A stretch of DNA of 11,745 bases from the UHGV virus genome UHGV-1592390; one strand, given 5' to 3'. This DNA comes from a virus. The translations under genes were made by a program, and so were the position numbers. The notes below the pieces were generated by a model. That model did not search any database and was not told the DNA's origin. It saw only the letters and a program-made list of their open reading frames with translations. Shown here in pieces: positions 1-11,745 of this stretch (positions are counted from its first letter, which is position 1; every line of letters begins with the position of its first letter).

Positions 1-74
1 TGATAGAAACAGAAGCCACTGGAGCACCTCAAAAACACCATCATACACTAAATCAGTAAGTTGGCAGCATCACC
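1..74 (-). mobile_element. IS1 terminal fragment (IRL / insA-upstream end); element body lies upstream of the window
   Basis: Bases 1..74 are the reverse complement of the canonical first ~74 bp of IS1 (GGTGATGCTGCCAACTTACTGAT... terminal inverted repeat), ending exactly at 74 (...gcagcatcacc). Recognised from memory of the IS1 sequence; insA/insB would be on the minus strand. Confidence 0.9.
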
Positions 75-83
75 GGAGAGTTC

Positions 84-332
84 TTAATCAGCATTCAGGA
101 GCAATGCGTTATCTATGATGATCTGCTCCCATTCCTCGAATGCCCGATCGCGGACGCCCTGGGGAACGCTGTTAGTTTTGAAATCGACGACCGTCCGCCA
201 TTTTCCGTCCGGACGGTACATGCGCAGAGCTTTACTTCCCCCTTCCCTGCGCACCTCAACGTTATGCTTGTCAGCAAACTCTTGTAATGCTCGTAGCGTC
301 CCATGCTTTACTGTGTAGTATCGCTTTTTCAA
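84..332 (-). CDS. lxc: Small 82-aa protein, likely P1 Lxc/Bof-like modulator of C1 repressor
   Basis: Complete 82-codon ORF. TTG start at 332-330 overlaps the stop of the upstream ORF (TTGA), with a GGAGAG Shine-Dalgarno 5 nt upstream. Size and position (third gene after darB) match my recollection of P1 lxc/bof; the protein sequence itself was not recognised. Stop lies 9 bp from the IS1 end. Confidence 0.55.
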   Translation of the reverse strand: MKKRYYTVKHGTLRALQEFADKHNVEVRREGGSKALRMYRPDGKWRTVVDFKTNSVPQGVRDRAFEEWEQIIIDNALLLNAD

Positions 333-769
333 GTTTTCTCTCCAGCCTGTGCTAAGGCTTCAACTTCCAAATCGTAAGACTCAAACTCATAGTCCTGGTC
401 GTCAACCTCTTCAGGCACTGGCAGTAAATGCCAGGCTGAGTATATCTGACCATTATCAAAACGCTCCTGGCTGTAGAGCGTCGCGGCTATGAGTGTCAGC
501 GCCGGGCGGTCATAACGGTAAATTTTGCGAACGTCACGGTCAACGAGACGACCGAAATTACCATAACCGCGCTCCAGTAATAATTTTTTAATTTCCGGCC
601 AGTATGGGCCATAGCTGCGGTACAGGCGGGGATTTTTCAGTAATCGCCCGCGTAGCCCTGACAGGAAGAAATCAACGTATTCGTCTTCTGTCTTTCCTAA
701 CAATGCCGTACGCAGTACCGCCTCAAGATATGTTTTATTCGGTTTTATTGTATCAGATAGTGTGGCCAT
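329..769 (-). CDS. ulx: 146-aa protein between darB and lxc, probably P1 Ulx-like (Dar system accessory)
   Basis: Complete ORF with ATG at 769-767 and TGA stop overlapping the lxc start. Co-directional and tightly packed with darB, 33 bp downstream of its stop. No recognisable catalytic motif; assignment is by position only. No obvious Shine-Dalgarno; a GC hairpin sits just upstream. Confidence 0.55.
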   Translation of the reverse strand: MATLSDTIKPNKTYLEAVLRTALLGKTEDEYVDFFLSGLRGRLLKNPRLYRSYGPYWPEIKKLLLERGYGNFGRLVDRDVRKIYRYDRPALTLIAATLYSQERFDNGQIYSAWHLLPVPEEVDDQDYEFESYDLEVEALAQAGEKT

Positions 770-778
770 ATTATGCGA

Positions 779-796
779 CGCCCGGCGAACCGGGCG
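779..796 (-). other. GC-rich stem-loop between the darB stop and the ulx start (7-bp stem, UUCG loop on the transcript)
   Basis: Minus-strand transcript reads CGCCCGG-UUCG-CCGGGCG, a perfect 7-bp stem with a UUCG tetraloop, 6 nt after the darB stop and ending 9 nt before the ulx ATG. No U-tract follows, so it is not a typical intrinsic terminator. Confidence 0.4.
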
Positions 797-802
797 CTCC
801 TG

Positions 803-3800
803 TTATGCGTATTGTTGGATGACGGCCAGAACGTCCGCCACGTTGTGTTTTGTCTCGATAATCCACCAGTTACCCGGGAAATCGCTGTTCTTCGCCTTCG
901 CTGGCAGCCAGCGAGCGCCGAATTTCGCCTTGATTGCGTCTTTCGCACGGAAAAGAACGCCTTTCATGCCTGAGGCTTCCTGAAGCCCAAATACCTCGCC
1001 AGCGGCGAATTTTGGTGCGTACATCATCTTCAGGTCGGCGGTGGATACGCGATAATTCAGACCAAGAGACTGAGCTATGCTGGTGGCATCACCCTGTATT
1101 GATGATAACTCTTCTTGTTTCTCGTTTCTGGCGGCAATTTCTTCCTCCGTGATGTTGCCAAGGGCCAGGTTTATCCGATCAGCGTCGGCCTGTTTCTCTT
1201 CATCGGTGCGTCCGGCAAGAACCGTGTTAACTCTCTGCAATATCTCCACATGATTCTTGCGCATGCTGAGCAATTCCGGCGTAACCTCGTTAAGATCCAC
1301 CAGCCCAAGGATGGCAAGGTCGGAAAACATTGATACCAGGTTGTAGGTCATGCGATAGCTGAGTTGACCATAGGCTGATGGCAACTTCACCGCATCCATT
1401 TGATAGGCATCCATAAATTTAGAGCCGTCGTTTACGACATCCGCAATTGCCGGTGTGATTTTTCCTGTGGTGGCGGCCTCCCTGATTGCTGTTACCCACG
1501 ATTGAGTCAGCGCGGCGACTGCATGATTCAGATTGGCTTTCCGTTCTGCTGCAATGCGCGCACTTGCTGCGTCCATTGCCTGCTTGATCTCGTCTTTATT
1601 GCTGTAAATGCCAATGGTGCCAAACTGTGCTGTGGTGATCTCATAATCTGACGCCCGGAACTCATTGGTACCGAAAATGGCATTGGTGACTTCAAGTTCA
1701 GAATCCCCGTTACGAGTAGACCCCTGGCTTGTTTTTTCCGGCATTCTGGCGATCGCATCCGCTATTTTCTCCTGAATTGCTTCAGGGGATAGCGTATCTC
1801 CGTATGACGCGATTACATCGCCATAATTGGAGCCAAACAATTCAACCAGGAATGTTTCTGCCGAACGGATCTGGCGGTTATTCCCTTCCGACATCATACC
1901 AAGCACCCATTTTGCAATTGACGACTTCAGCGCGCCGTCACGGCGATCCGGGTAAACCGCATGCTTCAGTGGGTCCGTATAGGTGCCAACAAAATCAATG
2001 CTATAGCCTGACTCTGTAGTCTGAACGCCGTATGAGTCAGTGATTTTGATCATGCCGCGCTGCTGGAAACGGTAGAAATCGTCACAGGAAATGATGTCGT
2101 TAATCCCGGCGATGGAGACGCCACCACTGATTTTCTGCATAACAGCATCTTCATCGGGAGTTACATCCACCTGTTTATCCAGCGTCTTCACATCCCAGTT
2201 ACCCGATTTGGTGCCTTTGAAGGTAAAGATGATCTCCACGTCTGCGCGCTGGCTGTCGAAGTCCAGCGACTTAATGCGAACGATATCACCGGCACAATCG
2301 TAGTATTGGCCTACACGCCATGAGCGATCGCCGATAACAAGGAACTCACTCGCATGGTTAACCAGGTCAGGATCAACATCCAGAATGCCTTTATTTATTG
2401 CATCCTCCACCAGCGGGCGCAGGCGTTTGATATCCGTCGCGGCCTTCTGAGTACGGTTCAATAATTTCTCATAGCGGGAGATGGCTTGAGTGATATTAGC
2501 CTTGCGCTGAATGGCGCTTTTCAACGACGCGCGATACTGTGCTAACAACATACGGTCTGTGTGATGGACACTCCCCCAGCGGGCCTTCCAGTCTGCGTTA
2601 TCCGCTGCCTTGGCCATTGCCGCCTGTTTGAATTTAGCTACCTCGGCGGTGGTCTTTTCAAGTTCCGCTTTGCTTCGCTCTAATTCAGCGGTAAGTACCT
2701 CCACATCCTCGCCAGCTGCGTGCTGCGCCTTGATGTAGTTCTGAAGGTCGATAGTAGCCTGTTCTTTCTGGCGAGCGCGTTGCGCGGCTTTCGCCTTATC
2801 CATTTGAACCTGCATCATTGCCAGACGTTCGCCATCATCCTTAGCGGTATACATCTGCATTTCGATCATATCGTTGGCGTCGGCGTTCTCCATTTCAGAC
2901 TTATCTGAGCGGAGGATATCGGAGATCCAGCCTGCTTTACGCTTCAGCGTCTTCAGTCGGTATTCATCGAAAGAACCCTTGCCGCAGTAGTAGTGAACGC
3001 GAACGCTTGCACGGTTGGAACCAACTCGGGCACCGCGACCGTTACGCTGTGCGATACTGGCTGGTGTCCATGGCAACGTCAGATGATGGATGTCAGTTGT
3101 TCCTCGATGCAGGTTGATACCCACCTCTGCCTTTTTGTTGCAGATGATGATCGGAGTCCGGCCCTCCTGGAAGTCGGCAGCAATCTTTTCCAGCCCACCC
3201 AGCGACATTTCATTTTGCTGCGCGATATAGGCGTCATACAGAGCCATTTGCTCGTTGTATTTCGCTATCTGTGCATCTGTTGGTTCATCCGGTAGCTCTT
3301 TCGGTGGTTTAACCGCTTTCAGTTTCTTACCGGTTTTACCTGCCTCGGCAACCGTCTGAGCATTCAGGATCCCCACCTTTGAAGGTTCAAGGTTAAGAGC
3401 ATTGCAGATAATGCGCTTGAGCTTCTGGTGTTGCGTTTTTTCATCGGTGAAGATGATTTGCTTACCTTCCGGGAAAAACTCCTTCAGCGTGGCAATCAGC
3501 TTCGCGTATTTGGGCGTAACGGGGTGAGTTACGGTCTGTTCGTCAATGCCAAACTTGGCCAGGCGCTTATTCACTTCCTGCTCAAATGCTTCCGGTACCT
3601 GCAACTGAATAAACTCGCCCTTATCTATCAGGGAGTATTGCGATTGCTGCGTGATCGAATCATCACTGTCGTCGTCTTCGCTGGTGGCTTGTTTAGGCAA
3701 ACTGTCCGCCAGCTGCTGCACCGCATCGGCGTACTCCGGCAGGAAACGATAGGTGATCCTGCGATAGTACAGGTCCATGTCAGTACATACGCGGTCCATA

Positions 3801-6800
3801 TCCCTGATTATTGAGAAGATCGGACGGGCTTTCTCGTGCTCAATCACGCCGTCTTCATTGACCGAGGTCGTTACGCCATTGTTGGCTTTGGCTGCCGCTT
3901 CCGCCTGCTGACGCAATTCTTCATACGCCGCCAGTTGTTCTTCCGTAAGTGGTGCATCCTGCTGGTGTTCGTCCAGTTCCGGGATCTCCACGGTATCCTT
4001 AACGTCTTCCGCCGTTTTAAGCGTTGTCCAGCGATGGAATATGCCGCGCAGCGCATCAAGGTTTTCAAAGCCCACCAGCGCCATTTTTTCTTCAACTTCA
4101 CCGCTGATTTTCTGTACCGTTTCCAGCCTGGTCTTGCCGAAGAATTTTACGAAGTCATCAGGACTGTAGATCCCCATCTTCTGCCAGTATTCCTTCGGCA
4201 GAACATGAGAAAGCATGTTGTATGCATCGATCGGGGTGTTAACGACTGGCGTTGCAGTCAGGAGAACCGGTCCGCGCCCACCATTCTTTTTCATCAGGTA
4301 CGCGTTTTTAATTGCCATATCCCGCGCCGATTGCGCCACCGCGCTGGTGGGCAGATAGGCCAGTTGTGACGCTTCGCGACCATTTTTATAGCTATTGCGG
4401 TAGTTGTGACCTTCGTCAGCGATCACACTATCGAAGCCCATATCCTCAAAGTACGGATACTTCTCTGCTTTTTCGGTGCCGGTATCTGAATACTCCGACA
4501 ATACCCGGCGACGCGCGGCCTCTTTGCGGTGGGAGTCGGAGTCCATTGCGCTGGCTACGCGCCCGGCGGCAACGAAGTCATAAAGCATATCCTGTGCATG
4601 CTCATCTACGGTGTCATCACGTAGCGGAATGCGGGCGTATTGTTCTTTGGTAAACACGACTGCACGGTAATTTGAGTGCGGGATCGCGTTCATCCGCGCC
4701 GTGATAGTGGCTTCATCTGCCAGCTTAAGAGCATCGCGCATAACTGGAGTGCCATCAGTACCAAGAACAGGTTTACCGTTCTCATCGAGCACCGGCACCT
4801 GGCGAATCTGATCGCCATCCATCAGCACATCAAGACCGACGAACAGGTAGTTACTGAATGCCTCTTCACTCAGGAATTCTTTTGCTTCGTAATACCAGTT
4901 TTCCAGCACTGATTTAGGCACTACATACGCAGTACGGGTGGAGCGACCGTTCTCATAGTTGAACGCCTCAAGCGCCAGCGCGGTCGTGGTTTTACCCAGC
5001 CCGGTGCCGAAGCCCAGGATGCCGCGCCCATCTTCGGACAGTCGGCGCACCTCGCTATTCTGGTAATCAAATGGCTGGCGCTTACCGCTTAATCCCTTCA
5101 ACCCAAGCGGATCGCCAGAGTGTTCATACGGGATATTGCTATTGAACACATCGTTGTATTTGGCAACCAGCTCATCGTAGCGATCGTGCGTCTTGATCCA
5201 CTTATTGAACTGGTCCTCAAGCAGTGCCATCTGCTCGCGGTAGCCGTTCGCCGTCGCGCTATCTTTGCCACCGATACGCGCACCATTGAGATACTTTTCC
5301 AGCTGTGCCGGGAACCCGGTCGCGTTTTCACCTGATTTACGGTCCCACTCGTAGCGGATCTCGCCTGTTTCTTTATCCTTGCGCTGGACGACACCGTATC
5401 GGTGCCCGACGAACAGACCATCACCACCGTGATAGGTGTCAGAAACCATTTCGTCGCCTTCCAGCTGCACTGACTGCACATAGCGAAGATCCGGATAGCC
5501 GTTTTCCTGCAAAAATTCCAGAATGACGGAACGGTCGAACCAACGGCTATTGAGCTTAAAGCGGATATTCTCTGCTGGCGTCTTGATGCGCTTCTCTTCG
5601 ATCGCTGCCAGCTGATTAAGGACGTTGTTCTTTACTGGACCGTCGGGGAGTGTGGCAAGGAATTCCTGTTTTGGTACCACTATCTCGTTAATGTCGCCGC
5701 TGGTGGCGCGGGCGAACGGAACAATCCCGCCATACGGTGAAACCGCAATGCCAGGGGTGCTGGCCAATAAATTAAGCAACTCGTCATCACTGGCTGGCAG
5801 TTCGCCGGTAAACGCAAGGCGGAAATCATCGAGCTGGATTGGATCGCGAGTGAGATCACTGTAGAGATAACGCAGGGTGTCCTGATAGCTGGTGGAGTCA
5901 TAACTGGCGCTGGAATCATGCGTAACCAGTTTTCCTGTCAGCTCGTCAGAAATAGTGCCATCCAGCTTAATTGCACCACGGAAAGCAAACCAGGCGCGCG
6001 CACCGCTCCCCGATAATTTCGCTATCGGACCGCGACCGGGGTTACCAAAACGGTCAATCTCTGCCTGCAAACGGGATACCAGAGAAAGGCGCTGCTGTTC
6101 GATTTGTTCAGCACTATGCCCGGCGGCCTTCATGTCCTGATATTCAATTAACATCCGGCCAATCATCGCCCCGCGATACAAGCGTTCACGGTATTTTTCA
6201 GGCTGGCTGTTAATCCAGTCCACCAGCTGCACCATATCGTCGCTGATTGATGTGGTGTACTTATCGCGGACATTTGCCATCTGGGTAAATGTCATACCGA
6301 GACGGCCTTCTGTTGTAGTCAGGTTACGCTGAAGAGCCTCCCAGCTGTCCGCGCCATAACTGGCAACATCAATCTTCAGCTCCTTCCCTGCATCAGCTTC
6401 AATCCAGCGACCACCAGCATATTTTTGCCATACGCCATTAATCAGGCGCATTTCCCCTTCATCAACAACGTCTGCGGTCGGTGACGGTTCAGCCATATTG
6501 AGCAAAGACCAGTCGATACGACTTTCGAAACGATGAATCAGCTTCGCTTTAAGAGCCTGGTTATCAATCTGCCCGTCGGCACGAACCTCAATACGCCCCT
6601 GGAATCCCTTCTCCTGAGTGCCATGAACAAACCGGCGGCCGTCCTTTTCAAACCACTTGCCAGAAATAAACGTTGGCCAAAGCACATTTGCCGATTCAAG
6701 AGTGCCTTCATCCACCAGGGGGATTTTCTCAGCCATCTCCGCCGGATGTTTGCGCATCAGCACCACGTCAACGACCGTACTGGTCCCGTTTGCGTCAAAA

Positions 6801-7570
6801 GTACCGGTAGGCAAGCGGTGGGCACCAAGAAATTCAGCTTTCCGTGATAGGCGCAGGCGTAACCGCTTCATGTTTGAACCTGAAACAATGGACGGCGGCA
6901 CAATCACGCACATGAATCCGCCTGGCTTTATCTTGTCCAGCATGCGGAGCATGAAGTAAGAACCCATGTCCGTTTCTTCTGCGTAAGGCTTATCGATGTT
7001 GCGTGTGTTATCACGACCACCGAACGGAACGTTACCCACAACATGGTCGAATGAATCGTTAGGCGTGCTTACAGCCAGCTGTTCGAACGGGGAAATCTGT
7101 ACGCTGTCTTCCGGGTGTAACAGCTGGTTTATACGACCGGAAACACTGCTGATCTCAGTCGCAGTCATCACCGTACCAACCGGTTTTGTCTCATTAAAAA
7201 CGCCGGTGCCCGCCGATGGTTCCAGAGTGTTACCTACGTCCGCGCCGTAGAGCTTCATGATCTCCCAGACACCTTCAGCGATCGGCTTTGGTGTGTAATA
7301 TTCGGAGACGGACCCGCCAATGCCGCCTTCACCGGTGTACCCAGCCAGGATCTGGCGCTGTTCATCTGTCAGTGTCGCGCCGTCCACCAGCGAATTAAGC
7401 AAATCTATCGCCTTCTGATTCGCCTCCCGGCGCAGTCGGTCATAGCTTTTGCCTTCCACCTTTTCCACGCCGTATTTAATCGGCGCTCGGTGAGATGTTA
7501 TTGCCCTAATGTATTTCAATATTTCGCTGACACTTGAACAGCGAAACACCCCCATAGATAGCTTGTTCAT
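803..7570 (-). CDS. darB: Giant (2255 aa) N6-adenine methyltransferase / SF2 helicase fusion; P1 DarB-like antirestriction protein
   Basis: Uninterrupted 6768-nt ORF with ATG at 7570 and an AAGGA Shine-Dalgarno 6 nt upstream. Gamma-class amino-methyltransferase motifs read from the translation: YYTP (aa 91-94), motif I LEPSAGTGVF (aa 116-125, nt ~7196-7225), motif IV NVPF (aa 180-183, nt 7022-7033). Helicase motifs: Walker A GFGTGLGKTT (aa 853-862, nt 4985-5014), DEGH (aa 1052-1055, nt 4406-4417), motif III LLTATP (aa 1103-1108), motif VI QRNGRGAR (aa 1508-1515, nt 3026-3049). Length and architecture match my recollection of P1 DarB. The C-terminal ~700 aa has a coiled-coil-like stretch and no recognisable motif. 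Confidence 0.85.
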   Translation of the reverse strand: MNKLSMGVFRCSSVSEILKYIRAITSHRAPIKYGVEKVEGKSYDRLRREANQKAIDLLNSLVDGATLTDEQRQILAGYTGEGGIGGSVSEYYTPKPIAEGVWEIMKLYGADVGNTLEPSAGTGVFNETKPVGTVMTATEISSVSGRINQLLHPEDSVQISPFEQLAVSTPNDSFDHVVGNVPFGGRDNTRNIDKPYAEETDMGSYFMLRMLDKIKPGGFMCVIVPPSIVSGSNMKRLRLRLSRKAEFLGAHRLPTGTFDANGTSTVVDVVLMRKHPAEMAEKIPLVDEGTLESANVLWPTFISGKWFEKDGRRFVHGTQEKGFQGRIEVRADGQIDNQALKAKLIHRFESRIDWSLLNMAEPSPTADVVDEGEMRLINGVWQKYAGGRWIEADAGKELKIDVASYGADSWEALQRNLTTTEGRLGMTFTQMANVRDKYTTSISDDMVQLVDWINSQPEKYRERLYRGAMIGRMLIEYQDMKAAGHSAEQIEQQRLSLVSRLQAEIDRFGNPGRGPIAKLSGSGARAWFAFRGAIKLDGTISDELTGKLVTHDSSASYDSTSYQDTLRYLYSDLTRDPIQLDDFRLAFTGELPASDDELLNLLASTPGIAVSPYGGIVPFARATSGDINEIVVPKQEFLATLPDGPVKNNVLNQLAAIEEKRIKTPAENIRFKLNSRWFDRSVILEFLQENGYPDLRYVQSVQLEGDEMVSDTYHGGDGLFVGHRYGVVQRKDKETGEIRYEWDRKSGENATGFPAQLEKYLNGARIGGKDSATANGYREQMALLEDQFNKWIKTHDRYDELVAKYNDVFNSNIPYEHSGDPLGLKGLSGKRQPFDYQNSEVRRLSEDGRGILGFGTGLGKTTTALALEAFNYENGRSTRTAYVVPKSVLENWYYEAKEFLSEEAFSNYLFVGLDVLMDGDQIRQVPVLDENGKPVLGTDGTPVMRDALKLADEATITARMNAIPHSNYRAVVFTKEQYARIPLRDDTVDEHAQDMLYDFVAAGRVASAMDSDSHRKEAARRRVLSEYSDTGTEKAEKYPYFEDMGFDSVIADEGHNYRNSYKNGREASQLAYLPTSAVAQSARDMAIKNAYLMKKNGGRGPVLLTATPVVNTPIDAYNMLSHVLPKEYWQKMGIYSPDDFVKFFGKTRLETVQKISGEVEEKMALVGFENLDALRGIFHRWTTLKTAEDVKDTVEIPELDEHQQDAPLTEEQLAAYEELRQQAEAAAKANNGVTTSVNEDGVIEHEKARPIFSIIRDMDRVCTDMDLYYRRITYRFLPEYADAVQQLADSLPKQATSEDDDSDDSITQQSQYSLIDKGEFIQLQVPEAFEQEVNKRLAKFGIDEQTVTHPVTPKYAKLIATLKEFFPEGKQIIFTDEKTQHQKLKRIICNALNLEPSKVGILNAQTVAEAGKTGKKLKAVKPPKELPDEPTDAQIAKYNEQMALYDAYIAQQNEMSLGGLEKIAADFQEGRTPIIICNKKAEVGINLHRGTTDIHHLTLPWTPASIAQRNGRGARVGSNRASVRVHYYCGKGSFDEYRLKTLKRKAGWISDILRSDKSEMENADANDMIEMQMYTAKDDGERLAMMQVQMDKAKAAQRARQKEQATIDLQNYIKAQHAAGEDVEVLTAELERSKAELEKTTAEVAKFKQAAMAKAADNADWKARWGSVHHTDRMLLAQYRASLKSAIQRKANITQAISRYEKLLNRTQKAATDIKRLRPLVEDAINKGILDVDPDLVNHASEFLVIGDRSWRVGQYYDCAGDIVRIKSLDFDSQRADVEIIFTFKGTKSGNWDVKTLDKQVDVTPDEDAVMQKISGGVSIAGINDIISCDDFYRFQQRGMIKITDSYGVQTTESGYSIDFVGTYTDPLKHAVYPDRRDGALKSSIAKWVLGMMSEGNNRQIRSAETFLVELFGSNYGDVIASYGDTLSPEAIQEKIADAIARMPEKTSQGSTRNGDSELEVTNAIFGTNEFRASDYEITTAQFGTIGIYSNKDEIKQAMDAASARIAAERKANLNHAVAALTQSWVTAIREAATTGKITPAIADVVNDGSKFMDAYQMDAVKLPSAYGQLSYRMTYNLVSMFSDLAILGLVDLNEVTPELLSMRKNHVEILQRVNTVLAGRTDEEKQADADRINLALGNITEEEIAARNEKQEELSSIQGDATSIAQSLGLNYRVSTADLKMMYAPKFAAGEVFGLQEASGMKGVLFRAKDAIKAKFGARWLPAKAKNSDFPGNWWIIETKHNVADVLAVIQQYA

Positions 7571-10367
<2,797 letters not shown>

Positions 10368-10371
10368 CCAC

Positions 10372-10405
10372 CAAAAATAACCCCGGCGGCTGCCGGGGTT
10401 CTCGT
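10372..10405. terminator. Bidirectional intrinsic terminator between convergent pro (+) and lyz/orf84 (-) transcripts
   Basis: Perfect 7-bp GC stem CCCCGGC (10381-10387), loop GGCT, GCCGGGG (10392-10398). On the minus strand it is followed by TTATTTTTGG (strong U-tract); on the plus strand it is preceded by an A-tract and followed by the weaker TTCTCGTT. Lies 14 nt after the pro stop and 14 nt after the orf84 stop. Confidence 0.7.
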
Positions 10406-10411
10406 TAACTA

Positions 10412-10666
10412 TTATCGCCTTCGCCTGCGTGCCATATATTTGCGCACCGCGCGGCGTGGACAATCTGAAGCGGTTTCTTTCTGCTGCATCAATCTTGCAG
10501 CCATGCTCAAAAATGTCAGGCACAGCCGAAGCCCGGCATACAATAGCGGTTCCAGTGGCCACGTCTCATTGAGCACATATACCGCCATGAAAATCGAGTC
10601 AAAAACTATCGCCGCCAGCGATAACTTCATTGTCGAAAGTCGGCGGAGCTGCCGGAGTTTATTCAT
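10412..10666 (-). CDS. Hypothetical 84-aa small membrane protein, translationally coupled to lyz; holin-like features
   Basis: ATG at 10666-10664 overlaps the lyz stop (ATGAATAA arrangement). One clear hydrophobic segment (LSLAAIVFDSIFMAVYVL), a second weaker one, and a strongly basic C-terminus (RRAVRKYMARRRRR). Ends 14 nt before the terminator hairpin. Codon usage looks ordinary. No homology could be checked. Confidence 0.4.
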   Translation of the reverse strand: MNKLRQLRRLSTMKLSLAAIVFDSIFMAVYVLNETWPLEPLLYAGLRLCLTFLSMAARLMQQKETASDCPRRAVRKYMARRRRR

Positions 10667-11216
10667 TGACCAGTCCCGTCAGGCAAAGCTGGCGTTCTTT
10701 TTCACGGCGAATCTTTAAACCTCGCAGGGGCACGCCGTTACTGTTCACGAAATCAGGGAGATGGTTACACATATTCACCCATTCCCCTTTCTGCGCCCAC
10801 TTGTGGATGGACGTTTCTACTCGCATGCCTCGCGCTTTGCTGTAGTAGGTCCGTAAGCTATTGCATCCCATATTGAATGCCGCGCTTGTCATTGCACTGA
10901 AGGCATTATCGGGCATGTCTTTGCCCCGGAAGTGCTGATTAATACAGCGTTCAGCGATCAGGATATTCTTTTCCCAATCAGCGGCGATTTGCTGGTCTGT
11001 TTTTCGCACACCCGGCGTTACCCCGTGTGTATTACCGATCCCGTCAGTCCATACCCCTGCCGGGCACATGTATGGATCACGTCGGCAACCTTCAGCGTTA
11101 CCAATCAGCTCAAGCCCCGCCTGGTTGGTTCGCACATTGCCATTACCCATCACGATGGTAATCATCACCGCGATAGCGCAAATTGCACCGCCTCCTGCGG
11201 CTGTTTTTCCCTTCAT
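10659..11216 (-). CDS. lyz: SAR (signal-arrest-release) endolysin, P1 Lyz, 185 aa
   Basis: From ATG 11216-11214 (GAGGT Shine-Dalgarno 5 nt upstream) the translation begins MKGKTAAGGGAICAIAVMITIVMGNGNVRTN..., with the N-terminal SAR transmembrane segment containing Cys13, then E42 and the Cys44/Cys51 pair (NAEGCRRDPYMC) characteristic of P1 Lyz as I recall it. The ORF track's longer 218-aa version adds an in-frame 33-aa extension with no ribosome-binding site. Confidence 0.93.
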   Translation of the reverse strand: MKGKTAAGGGAICAIAVMITIVMGNGNVRTNQAGLELIGNAEGCRRDPYMCPAGVWTDGIGNTHGVTPGVRKTDQQIAADWEKNILIAERCINQHFRGKDMPDNAFSAMTSAAFNMGCNSLRTYYSKARGMRVETSIHKWAQKGEWVNMCNHLPDFVNSNGVPLRGLKIRREKERQLCLTGLVNE

Positions 11217-11299
11217 AAAGACCTCATAAGCGAATTTTTTACGCTCCAGGACAAACACCCATTCACAGCCAATACCGACTGACTCGATCCCTTTAGAAG

Positions 11300-11326
11300 A
11301 CACAGGATAATGCAAATCACTTGTTA
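11300..11326 (-). promoter_or_regulatory. Candidate late promoter for lyz (shared box plus -10-like hexamer)
   Basis: On the lyz-sense strand: TAACAAGTGA (complement of 11317-11326), 4 nt, then CATTAT (complement of 11307-11312). Same decamer and geometry as upstream of prt. Predicted start near 11300, about 84 nt upstream of the lyz ATG. Confidence 0.35.
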
Positions 11327-11366
11327 GCTACGTTTCAAAGATATACATTATTGCTCTAATTATTTT
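11321..11366 (+). promoter_or_regulatory. Candidate sigma70 promoter for ssb overlapped by a C1-repressor operator-like site
   Basis: -35 TTGTTA (11321-11326), 17-bp spacer, -10 TACATT (11344-11349). Immediately downstream, ATTGCTCTAATTATTTT (11350-11366) matches the P1 C1 operator consensus ATTGCTCTAATAAATTT as I recall it at 15 of 17 positions. ssb GTG start follows at 11386. Confidence 0.5.
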
Positions 11367-11385
11367 ATTTTATTAGGTAAGAAAA

Positions 11386-11670
11386 GTGGCACAACGCGGT
11401 GTAAACAAAGTCATCCTGATTGGTACCCTGGGGCAAGACCCGGAGATCAGGTATATACCAAATGGCGGAGCAGTCGGAAGACTCAGCATCGCAACGAATG
11501 AATCATGGCGCGACAAGCAAACGGGCCAACAGAAAGAGCAAACAGAATGGCATAAAGTCGTTTTGTTCGGAAAACTTGCTGAAATTGCGAGTGAGTATTT
11601 ACGAAAAGGTTCTCAGGTCTACATCGAAGGGAAACTTAAAACCCGTAAGTGGACAGATGACGCCGGTGTA
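11386..11670 (+). pseudogene. ssb: Single-stranded DNA-binding protein gene, 5' portion only (codons 1-95), disrupted by IS1
   Basis: GTG start at 11386 with an AGGTAAG Shine-Dalgarno-like sequence upstream. Translation [95 protein letters not shown] aligns with the N-terminal OB-fold of E. coli SSB ([31 protein letters not shown]...KWTDQSG). After codon 95 the frame runs into IS1 sequence and is open to the window edge; the rest of the OB-fold, the Gly-rich linker and the acidic C-terminal tail are missing. Not in the ORF track because no stop occurs in-window. Confidence 0.85.
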
Positions 11671-11745
11671 GGTAATGACTCCAACTTATTGATAGTGTTT
11701 TATGTTCAGATAATGCCCGATGACTTTGTCATGCAGCTCCACCGA
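11671..11745 (-). mobile_element. IS1 terminal fragment (IRR / insB-distal end); element body continues downstream of the window
   Basis: GGTAATGACTCCAACTTATTGATAGTG... from 11671 is the IS1 right inverted repeat and adjacent sequence, read as the reverse complement of the canonical orientation. Same orientation as the IS1 end at 1..74. Confidence 0.9.

Follow-up and report, generated by a model that had tools for sequence, protein, structure and literature searches.

The darB gene of bacteriophage P1 has been known since 1987 and is, to our knowledge, annotated in every P1-like genome. Its product is a 250-kDa protein that, according to the literature, is believed to enter the cell together with the DNA. 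About 40 copies are held in the P1 head, DarB being the last Dar protein to be added (PMC9024508), and the Dar proteins protect in cis only (PMC12707154). Protection from EcoB and EcoK requires Ulx, DarB and DdrB; protection from EcoA requires DarA (PMC12810830). The same specificity of DarB for EcoK and EcoB is also tabulated in PMC9024508. How is this protection brought about? The mechanism ‘has not been defined’ (PMC11109961). Plasmid-borne darB relieves EcoKI restriction by virtue of its DNA, which carries Chi and an EcoKI site, and not by virtue of its protein, and in this assay mutants in the catalytic residues are equivalent to wild type (PMC11109961).

In Iyer et al. 2017 (PMC5512222), DarB is the archetype of an LPD36–methylase–SNF2 module of polyvalent proteins. 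This module combines LPD36 and its GXGU motif with a TP helix, a motif IV of the NPP(Y/F) type and an SNF2 ATPase that contains helical inserts. The window protein shows the motifs and the ATPase in the same order, its LPD36 region being a candidate assigned by motif. A model in which methylase and SNF2 ATPase act as a dyad is proposed there. The C-terminal region of about 700 residues, which in DarB is colinear and has four parts, is not among the features described in the sections of that article covered here.

We examined a stretch of 11,745 nucleotides from the virus genome UHGV-1592390 (hereafter, the window). It contains a single very long open reading frame at 803..7570 on the minus strand, which runs uninterrupted for 2255 codons from an ATG to its stop codon at 803–805. 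A Shine–Dalgarno sequence, AAGGA (7577..7581, minus strand), can be read directly 6 nt upstream of the ATG. An earlier, sequence-only reading of the window had placed the gene at exactly these coordinates, as the list of open reading frames and the translation confirm, and had called its product ‘DarB-like’. The alignment is more specific than that. The product is colinear with P1 DarB (AAQ13985), which has the same length of 2255 residues, and is identical to it at 2230/2255 positions (98.9%) with no gaps. The first 60 residues are the same in both proteins, and 15 of the 25 substitutions are located after residue 1650. P7 DarB (AAQ07489) likewise belongs to the closest known proteins. The protein also matches PHROG 1685 over its full length. 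At the level of DNA, a megablast search of phage records ranked P1, 98.5% identical along the entire window, ahead of SJ46, RCS47 and P7; the best plasmid match, an E. coli P1-like plasmid whose genes are arranged in the same order, is 99.8% identical over window positions 73–11671. In the P1 record the matching gene is labelled darB, ‘defense against restriction; putative DNA adenine methyltransferase and helicase’.

The neighbouring genes agree with this identification. The window preserves the P1 order, lxc–ulx–darB, divergent from prt–pro–lydE/D–lyz–ssb. Immediately downstream of darB lies its partner ulx (329..769, minus strand; 146 codons), whose product is identical to P1 Ulx at 144/146 residues, followed by an intact lxc (84–332). 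Divergent from darB is the portal gene prt (7646..9355, plus strand), with 564/569 residues identical to P1 Prt, then pro (9348–10367), lydE, lydD and lyz, all intact and in P1 order. Only ssb is cut, at position 11671; every other neighbour is intact and none carries more than five substitutions. The window differs from P1 in this truncation of ssb and in the IS1 ends that flank its P1 segment. Of the dar set it contains only darB and ulx, the genes darA, hdf, ddrA and ddrB lying outside it. On these comparisons the open reading frame is almost certainly an intact darB allele of a P1-like plasmid prophage of Enterobacteriaceae. We infer from the 99% identity that head loading and cis protection from EcoK and EcoB probably carry over from P1 to this allele. 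Virion packaging, protection from type I enzymes and a poorly resolved mechanism had all been stated in the sequence-only reading, in agreement with PMC9024508, PMC12810830, PMC11109961 and PMC12707154.

How common is the gene? Of 5426 complete E. coli genomes, 776 (about 14%) match darB, 441 of these at a coverage of 80% or more, and 825 of 846 locations in such genomes were on plasmids. The darB of the window is thus an already known, common gene, and the find, though real, is ordinary. What is added here is a domain map, the family-wide conservation of an unannotated C-terminal third, a conserved darB–ulx–portal module, and the recognition that one sub-domain (residues 1871–2165) changes at several times the rate of the remaining protein. 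Together with the invariant catalytic residues, these additions provide handles on how DarB blocks type I restriction.

The N-terminus of P1 DarB carries the signal for packaging: its first 30 residues are enough to guide a reporter into the capsid of P1 (PMC9024508). Given that report and the identity of residues 1–60, codons 1–30 of the window gene (7481..7570, minus strand) probably encode the same capsid-targeting sequence. A putative LPD36-like helical region follows at codons ~40–90 (7301..7453, minus strand), assigned by its Y78-[ST]-G80-x-G82-G motif. The window version reads Y78-T-G-E-G-G, and none of the 24 family representatives departs from Y78, G80 or G82.

Codons 86–290 (6701..7315, minus strand) encode a predicted gamma-class N6-adenine methyltransferase catalytic domain; an N6-adenine methyltransferase had been proposed in the sequence-only reading. 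The Pfam models N6_Mtase (residues 145–290, 32.7 bits against a cut-off of 20.4) and Eco57I methylase (residues 166–244, 31.7 bits against 25.3) both match above their cut-offs. The motifs are located where that reading had put them: TP at 93–94, motif I (EPSAGTGVF) at 117–125 and motif IV (NVPF) at 180–183. The assignment to the gamma class follows from the order, motif I preceding an NPPY-type motif IV, together with an N6_Mtase score above the gathering threshold. What are the closest relatives of known structure? By sequence, the best matches are the M subunits of type I enzymes, among them HsdM of EcoKI itself (PDB 2ar0/2y7c). These matches are weak (E about 1e-5 to 1e-3), extend over ~100–180 residues and do not reach beyond the catalytic domain; furthermore DarB, in contrast to HsdM, is without an HsdS partner. 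In the literature searched we found no report of DarB-dependent methylation or of DarB ATPase activity.

The second enzymatic domain, a predicted Swi2/Snf2-type SF2 ATPase with a long insert between its two lobes, occupies codons 831–1540 (2951..5080, minus strand). Pfam SNF2-rel_dom scores 41.5 bits (cut-off 24.9; best stretch 849–911), ResIII matches residues 833–904 above its gathering score, and Helicase_C matches 1455–1517 at 27.8 bits (cut-off 23.5). The motifs of the superfamily are present: Walker A (motif I, GTGLGKT) at 855–861, motif II of the DExH type (DEGH) at 1052–1055, motif III (TAT) at 1105–1107 and motif VI (QRNGRGAR) at 1508–1515. A profile search of this region against the PDB returned the ATPases INO80, SNF2 and SsoRad54. 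The claim of a complete SF2 helicase core thus stands as regards the motifs and the Pfam domains, and requires refinement as regards the word helicase: since its nearest solved relatives are INO80, SNF2 and SsoRad54, the DarB ‘helicase’ is, by prediction, a Swi2/Snf2-type double-stranded DNA translocase, in accordance with Iyer et al. 2017 (PMC5512222). The conserved ATPase motifs and the SNF2-related Pfam domain are common to DarB, to these remodelling ATPases and to DrmD, ZorD and DpdE. PF28555, which came up in database matches as a candidate C-terminal domain, is a generic ‘Helicase_dom’ and was rejected.

The order of domains, methylase followed by SF2 ATPase followed by an unannotated C-terminal third, is that of the sequence-only reading, which would have been given up had the identity to P1 DarB been low, the domain order different or the enzymatic motifs unsupported; instead the identity is high, the order is the same and Pfam supports both sets of motifs. 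That reading had overlooked a second unannotated stretch. Between methylase and ATPase, codons 291–830 (5081..6700, minus strand) encode some 540 conserved residues, of which residues 331–830 gave no Pfam match even at E ≤ 10.

What, then, is the C-terminal third? Here the earlier claim that it lacks a recognizable motif was borne out by Pfam, in which residues 1540–2255 matched no family even at E ≤ 10. We found neither a sequence relative in the PDB nor a significant fold match for this region. An AlphaFold model of residues 1540–2255 built from 13 aligned sequences attained a mean pLDDT of 80.3, as compared with only 43 for the single-sequence model, and is predicted to have four parts: a coiled coil, a beta-rich, a helical and a terminal alpha/beta part. 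For each of these four sub-regions we searched an HMM against 31 long open reading frames from a scan of species-representative genomes. The predicted coiled coil of three long helices (codons 1579–1726; 2393..2836; this and the following coordinates are on the minus strand) was recovered in 31/31 relatives. The beta-rich domain (codons 1743–1860; 1991..2344), whose strands are modelled with a pLDDT of about 80–92, was recovered in 28/31 and had no significant fold match. The predicted helical domain (codons 1879–2168; 1067..1936), which opens just after the conserved VYPD at 1872–1875, was recovered in 26/31. The terminal alpha/beta domain of about 90 residues (codons 2166–2255; 806..1075), modelled at 2171–2252, was recovered in 29/31, and in each of these 29 relatives the match stops no more than 15 residues short of the C-terminus. 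Two further conserved motifs, D-x-x-G-K-x-G-x-L (about 2198–2206) and G-x-W-W-x-I-P (2233–2239), lie in this region, and W2236 does not vary among 37 aligned sequences. The profile of the terminal domain matched nothing among PDB sequences or Pfam.

The relatives, of ~2000–2600 residues, come from several phyla: their hosts include Enterobacterales, Vibrio, Shewanella, Pseudoalteromonas and Desulfovibrio, and others are found in metagenome-assembled genomes labelled Syntrophorhabdaceae, Phycisphaeraceae, Bacteroidaceae, Spirochaetaceae and Bulleidia. Across them the four parts keep the same order. Because the parts recur in order in such distant relatives, the C-terminal third is by all appearances ancestral to the DarB family and not an addition peculiar to P1. 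We take it to mediate contacts with partners or targets rather than catalysis.

How widespread is the family as a whole? With residues 1540–2255 as query, HMMER run exhaustively against 1.84 billion representatives found only 80 proteins. Those exceeding 1900 residues number 23, all of them DarB-sized (2024–2394 residues), with a C-terminal matched segment in almost every case. The distant relatives came from this exhaustive search alone; word-indexed searches, by sequence and then by profile, gave only near-identical fragments and chimeras. The 23 DarB-sized proteins align with the window protein along its whole length at 31–49% identity. Mean identity to the window protein, calculated in blocks of 50 residues, peaks in the two enzymatic domains (about 0.5–0.64), is intermediate in residues 291–830 (18–48%) and falls to its lowest values in the C-terminal third (0.09–0.29). 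In 24 representatives spanning these identities, motif I and motif IV of the methylase, and the Walker A, DExH, motif III and motif VI arginines of the ATPase, are invariant. We take this invariance of the catalytic residues of both enzymes as evidence that both activities are probably needed.

The rates of change single out one part of the protein. In both enzymatic domains dN/dS is 0.02–0.05, and the terminal domain is conserved to the same degree. In residues 1871–2165, the helical sub-domain, the ratio rises to 0.35–0.42, against 0.13 or less elsewhere; this stretch also has the highest dN at greater distance, and is the fastest-evolving part of DarB. Compared with P1, the last 715 codons differ by 15 non-synonymous and 18 synonymous codon changes and the preceding 1540 by 10 and 66, respectively (Fisher p = 4.5e-4). 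These ratios indicate relaxed or partly diversifying selection on residues 1871–2165, and are not proof of positive selection.

How might a protein so constructed block type I restriction? Since both catalytic centres are invariant, we tentatively favour a cis-acting methylase–translocase that tracks along the injected DNA, a reading we hold to be quite possible rather than probable. DarB would remain on the injected duplex, along which its Swi2/Snf2 motor would track while the EcoKI-HsdM-like N6-adenine methylase modified the DNA. Either this methylation or the moving motor itself would then keep the type I complexes from starting their destructive translocation.

The range of protection is not easily explained by a sequence-blind adenine methylase, for DarB covers EcoK and EcoB, whose target sequences are unrelated, and does not cover EcoA. 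This range fits better with recognition of the type IA enzymes themselves, and here lies the main rival. In this alternative the Swi2/Snf2 domain is a remodeller that would recognize the complexes of the type IA enzymes EcoKI and EcoBI once these sit on the injected DNA, and would strip or stall them; the HsdM-like domain would serve mainly to bind DNA or SAM, or as a mimic of HsdM, and the fast-evolving C-terminal region would recognize the host enzyme. The attraction of such a remodeller is that EcoK and EcoB share interchangeable subunits and not targets, with EcoA left uncovered (PMC9024508, PMC12810830). A methylase whose nearest solved relatives are the M subunits of type I enzymes, EcoKI HsdM included, points the same way, and there is a precedent in the prokaryotic SNF2 ATPase RapA, which frees RNA polymerase from the post-termination complex (PMC5512222). 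The high dN/dS of residues 1871–2165 would suit a surface that co-evolves with its host targets. But that ratio remains below one, so that relaxed constraint accounts for it equally well. Moreover, the SAM-binding and catalytic methylase residues E117-P-S, G123, F125, N180 and P182 are invariant, a pattern not easily reconciled with a domain that need not transfer methyl groups. We consider the remodeller somewhat unlikely, and retain the methylase–translocase as our preference.

A third alternative requires neither enzymatic activity: DarB and the other Dar proteins would simply coat the incoming DNA and occlude it. In its favour are the strictly cis action and a review that proposes physical obstruction (PMC12707154), together with the packaging of about 40 DarB copies per virion (PMC9024508). 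Forty molecules are nonetheless too few to cover 94 kb, and both catalytic centres are invariant at 31–49% overall identity and under strong purifying selection; passive coating is accordingly very improbable. Least credible of all, to the point where it can be set aside, is that the gene is a component of a defence or restriction–modification system (a type ISP or type III-like fusion, DISARM DrmD/DrmMI or BREX PglX): the weak, partial matches to DrmD, DpdE, ZorD, PglX and type I/II methylase models, and the equally partial matches in PADLOC, engage only the generic helicase and methylase cores and reach a small fraction of the equivalog cut-offs (44.9 of 610 bits for DrmD, 31.5 of 500 for DpdE), the accessory domains of those Swi2/Snf2 systems are absent, a Pfam search for a nuclease domain detected none, and the gene lies among head genes as a 99%-identical copy of P1 darB. 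Type ISP enzymes are not known to have the order methylase-then-helicase. The low scores, together with the identity to P1 darB and its context, led us to reject DISARM, BREX, Dpd and type ISP, and uphold the sequence-only view of an anti-defence gene as opposed to a new defence system.

Does the family travel alone? In P1, Ulx is listed as a helper of DarB localization (PMC9024508). In five loci from four distant relatives, a gene of about 145–165 codons lies directly after the darB-like gene, and the products of these downstream genes are 27–47% identical to Ulx. In all five a P1-type portal gene adjoins the darB-like gene, and a homologue of pro lies beside the portal wherever the contig reaches that far. 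The conserved Ulx and portal neighbours fit the view that DarB-family proteins may be head-packaged cargo wherever they are present.

Could the C-terminal third belong to the same arrangement? It may be a module of four parts and ancient origin that accompanies Ulx and the P1-type portal through several bacterial phyla. In this module the fast-evolving beta and helical parts (residues 1736–2165) would set which host restriction enzymes are neutralized, and the conserved terminal 90 residues would dock DarB to Ulx or to the head and ejection machinery. We regard this as rather unlikely, a conjecture. If true, the type IA specificity of DarB would reside in an unannotated region without a library match, and not in the methylase.

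The arrangement itself extends well beyond these five loci. In 36 fetched loci the darB-like open reading frame has a Ulx homologue directly after it, in 35 of them on the same strand, and a P1-type portal adjoins the darB-like frame in 32 loci (34 portal matches) from several phyla, so that the conserved darB–ulx–portal module marks the family beyond the Enterobacteria. The position of the portal varies: in Enterobacterales it is upstream of the darB-like gene and divergent from it, and in the Desulfovibrio- and Vibrio-type loci it is downstream of ulx.

How are Chi sites distributed over the window, and how many fall within darB? There are 14 copies of the Chi sequence GCTGGTGG, spread over both strands, where shuffled sequences would lead one to expect 0.35; 11 of the 14 lie inside darB (803–7570, minus strand). 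This is the same number as that given for darB in PMC11109961, which reports that, on darB plasmids, Chi together with an EcoKI site leads to restriction alleviation without need of the DarB protein.

The record of phage P7 places a hypothetical C1-repressor operator, Op(pro), within darB, at the equivalent of window 7500–7516. This annotation is absent from the P1 record. The window carries ATTGCCCTAATGTATTT at that position, which falls within darB near its 5′ end.

Is DarB always found at its full length? Public assemblies hold many shortened forms, which differ in their in-frame internal deletions. Residues 1–260 are joined to 1478–2255 in one example, 1–297 to 1538–2255 in a second and 1–454 to 1791–2255 in a third. 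In other database proteins, DarA_N/DarA_C or ddrB-ParB domains are fused to the C-terminus of DarB. Since most members of this shortened and fused set (database proteins P0001–P0004, P0007, P0011, P0013, P0018, P0020, P0024, P0031 and P0040) are singletons, they may represent decaying prophages or assembly artefacts.

In Enterobacterales the P1-type portal gene lies upstream of darB and is divergent from it, whereas at ten loci of more distant relatives (L019, L023, L024, L033, L037, L039 and L043–L046; hosts Desulfovibrio, Vibrio owensii, Syntrophorhabdaceae and others) the portal gene is found downstream of ulx and shares its strand with the darB-like gene. One distant DarB-family protein, P0109 (2394 aa), bears an additional N-terminal inorganic pyrophosphatase (InPase) domain. 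At the darB-like locus L005, a separate InPase gene adjoins genes with DarA_N and DarA_C domains; going downstream from the darB-like gene, it is reached after approximately 2.2 kb.

What delimits the window itself? IS1 termini in the same orientation are present at both ends, the left (1–74) being the reverse complement of IRL and the right (11671–11745) the reverse complement of IRR. Because both ends carry such termini, either IS1 copies flank the P1 segment or the contig merely broke at IS1. The ssb gene, which starts at 11386, is truncated after about codon 95. The lyz–ssb intergenic region (approximately 11000–11385) differs from that of P1 by one base in length, which displaces ssb by +1 from the offset to P1 that is constant over the rest of the window.
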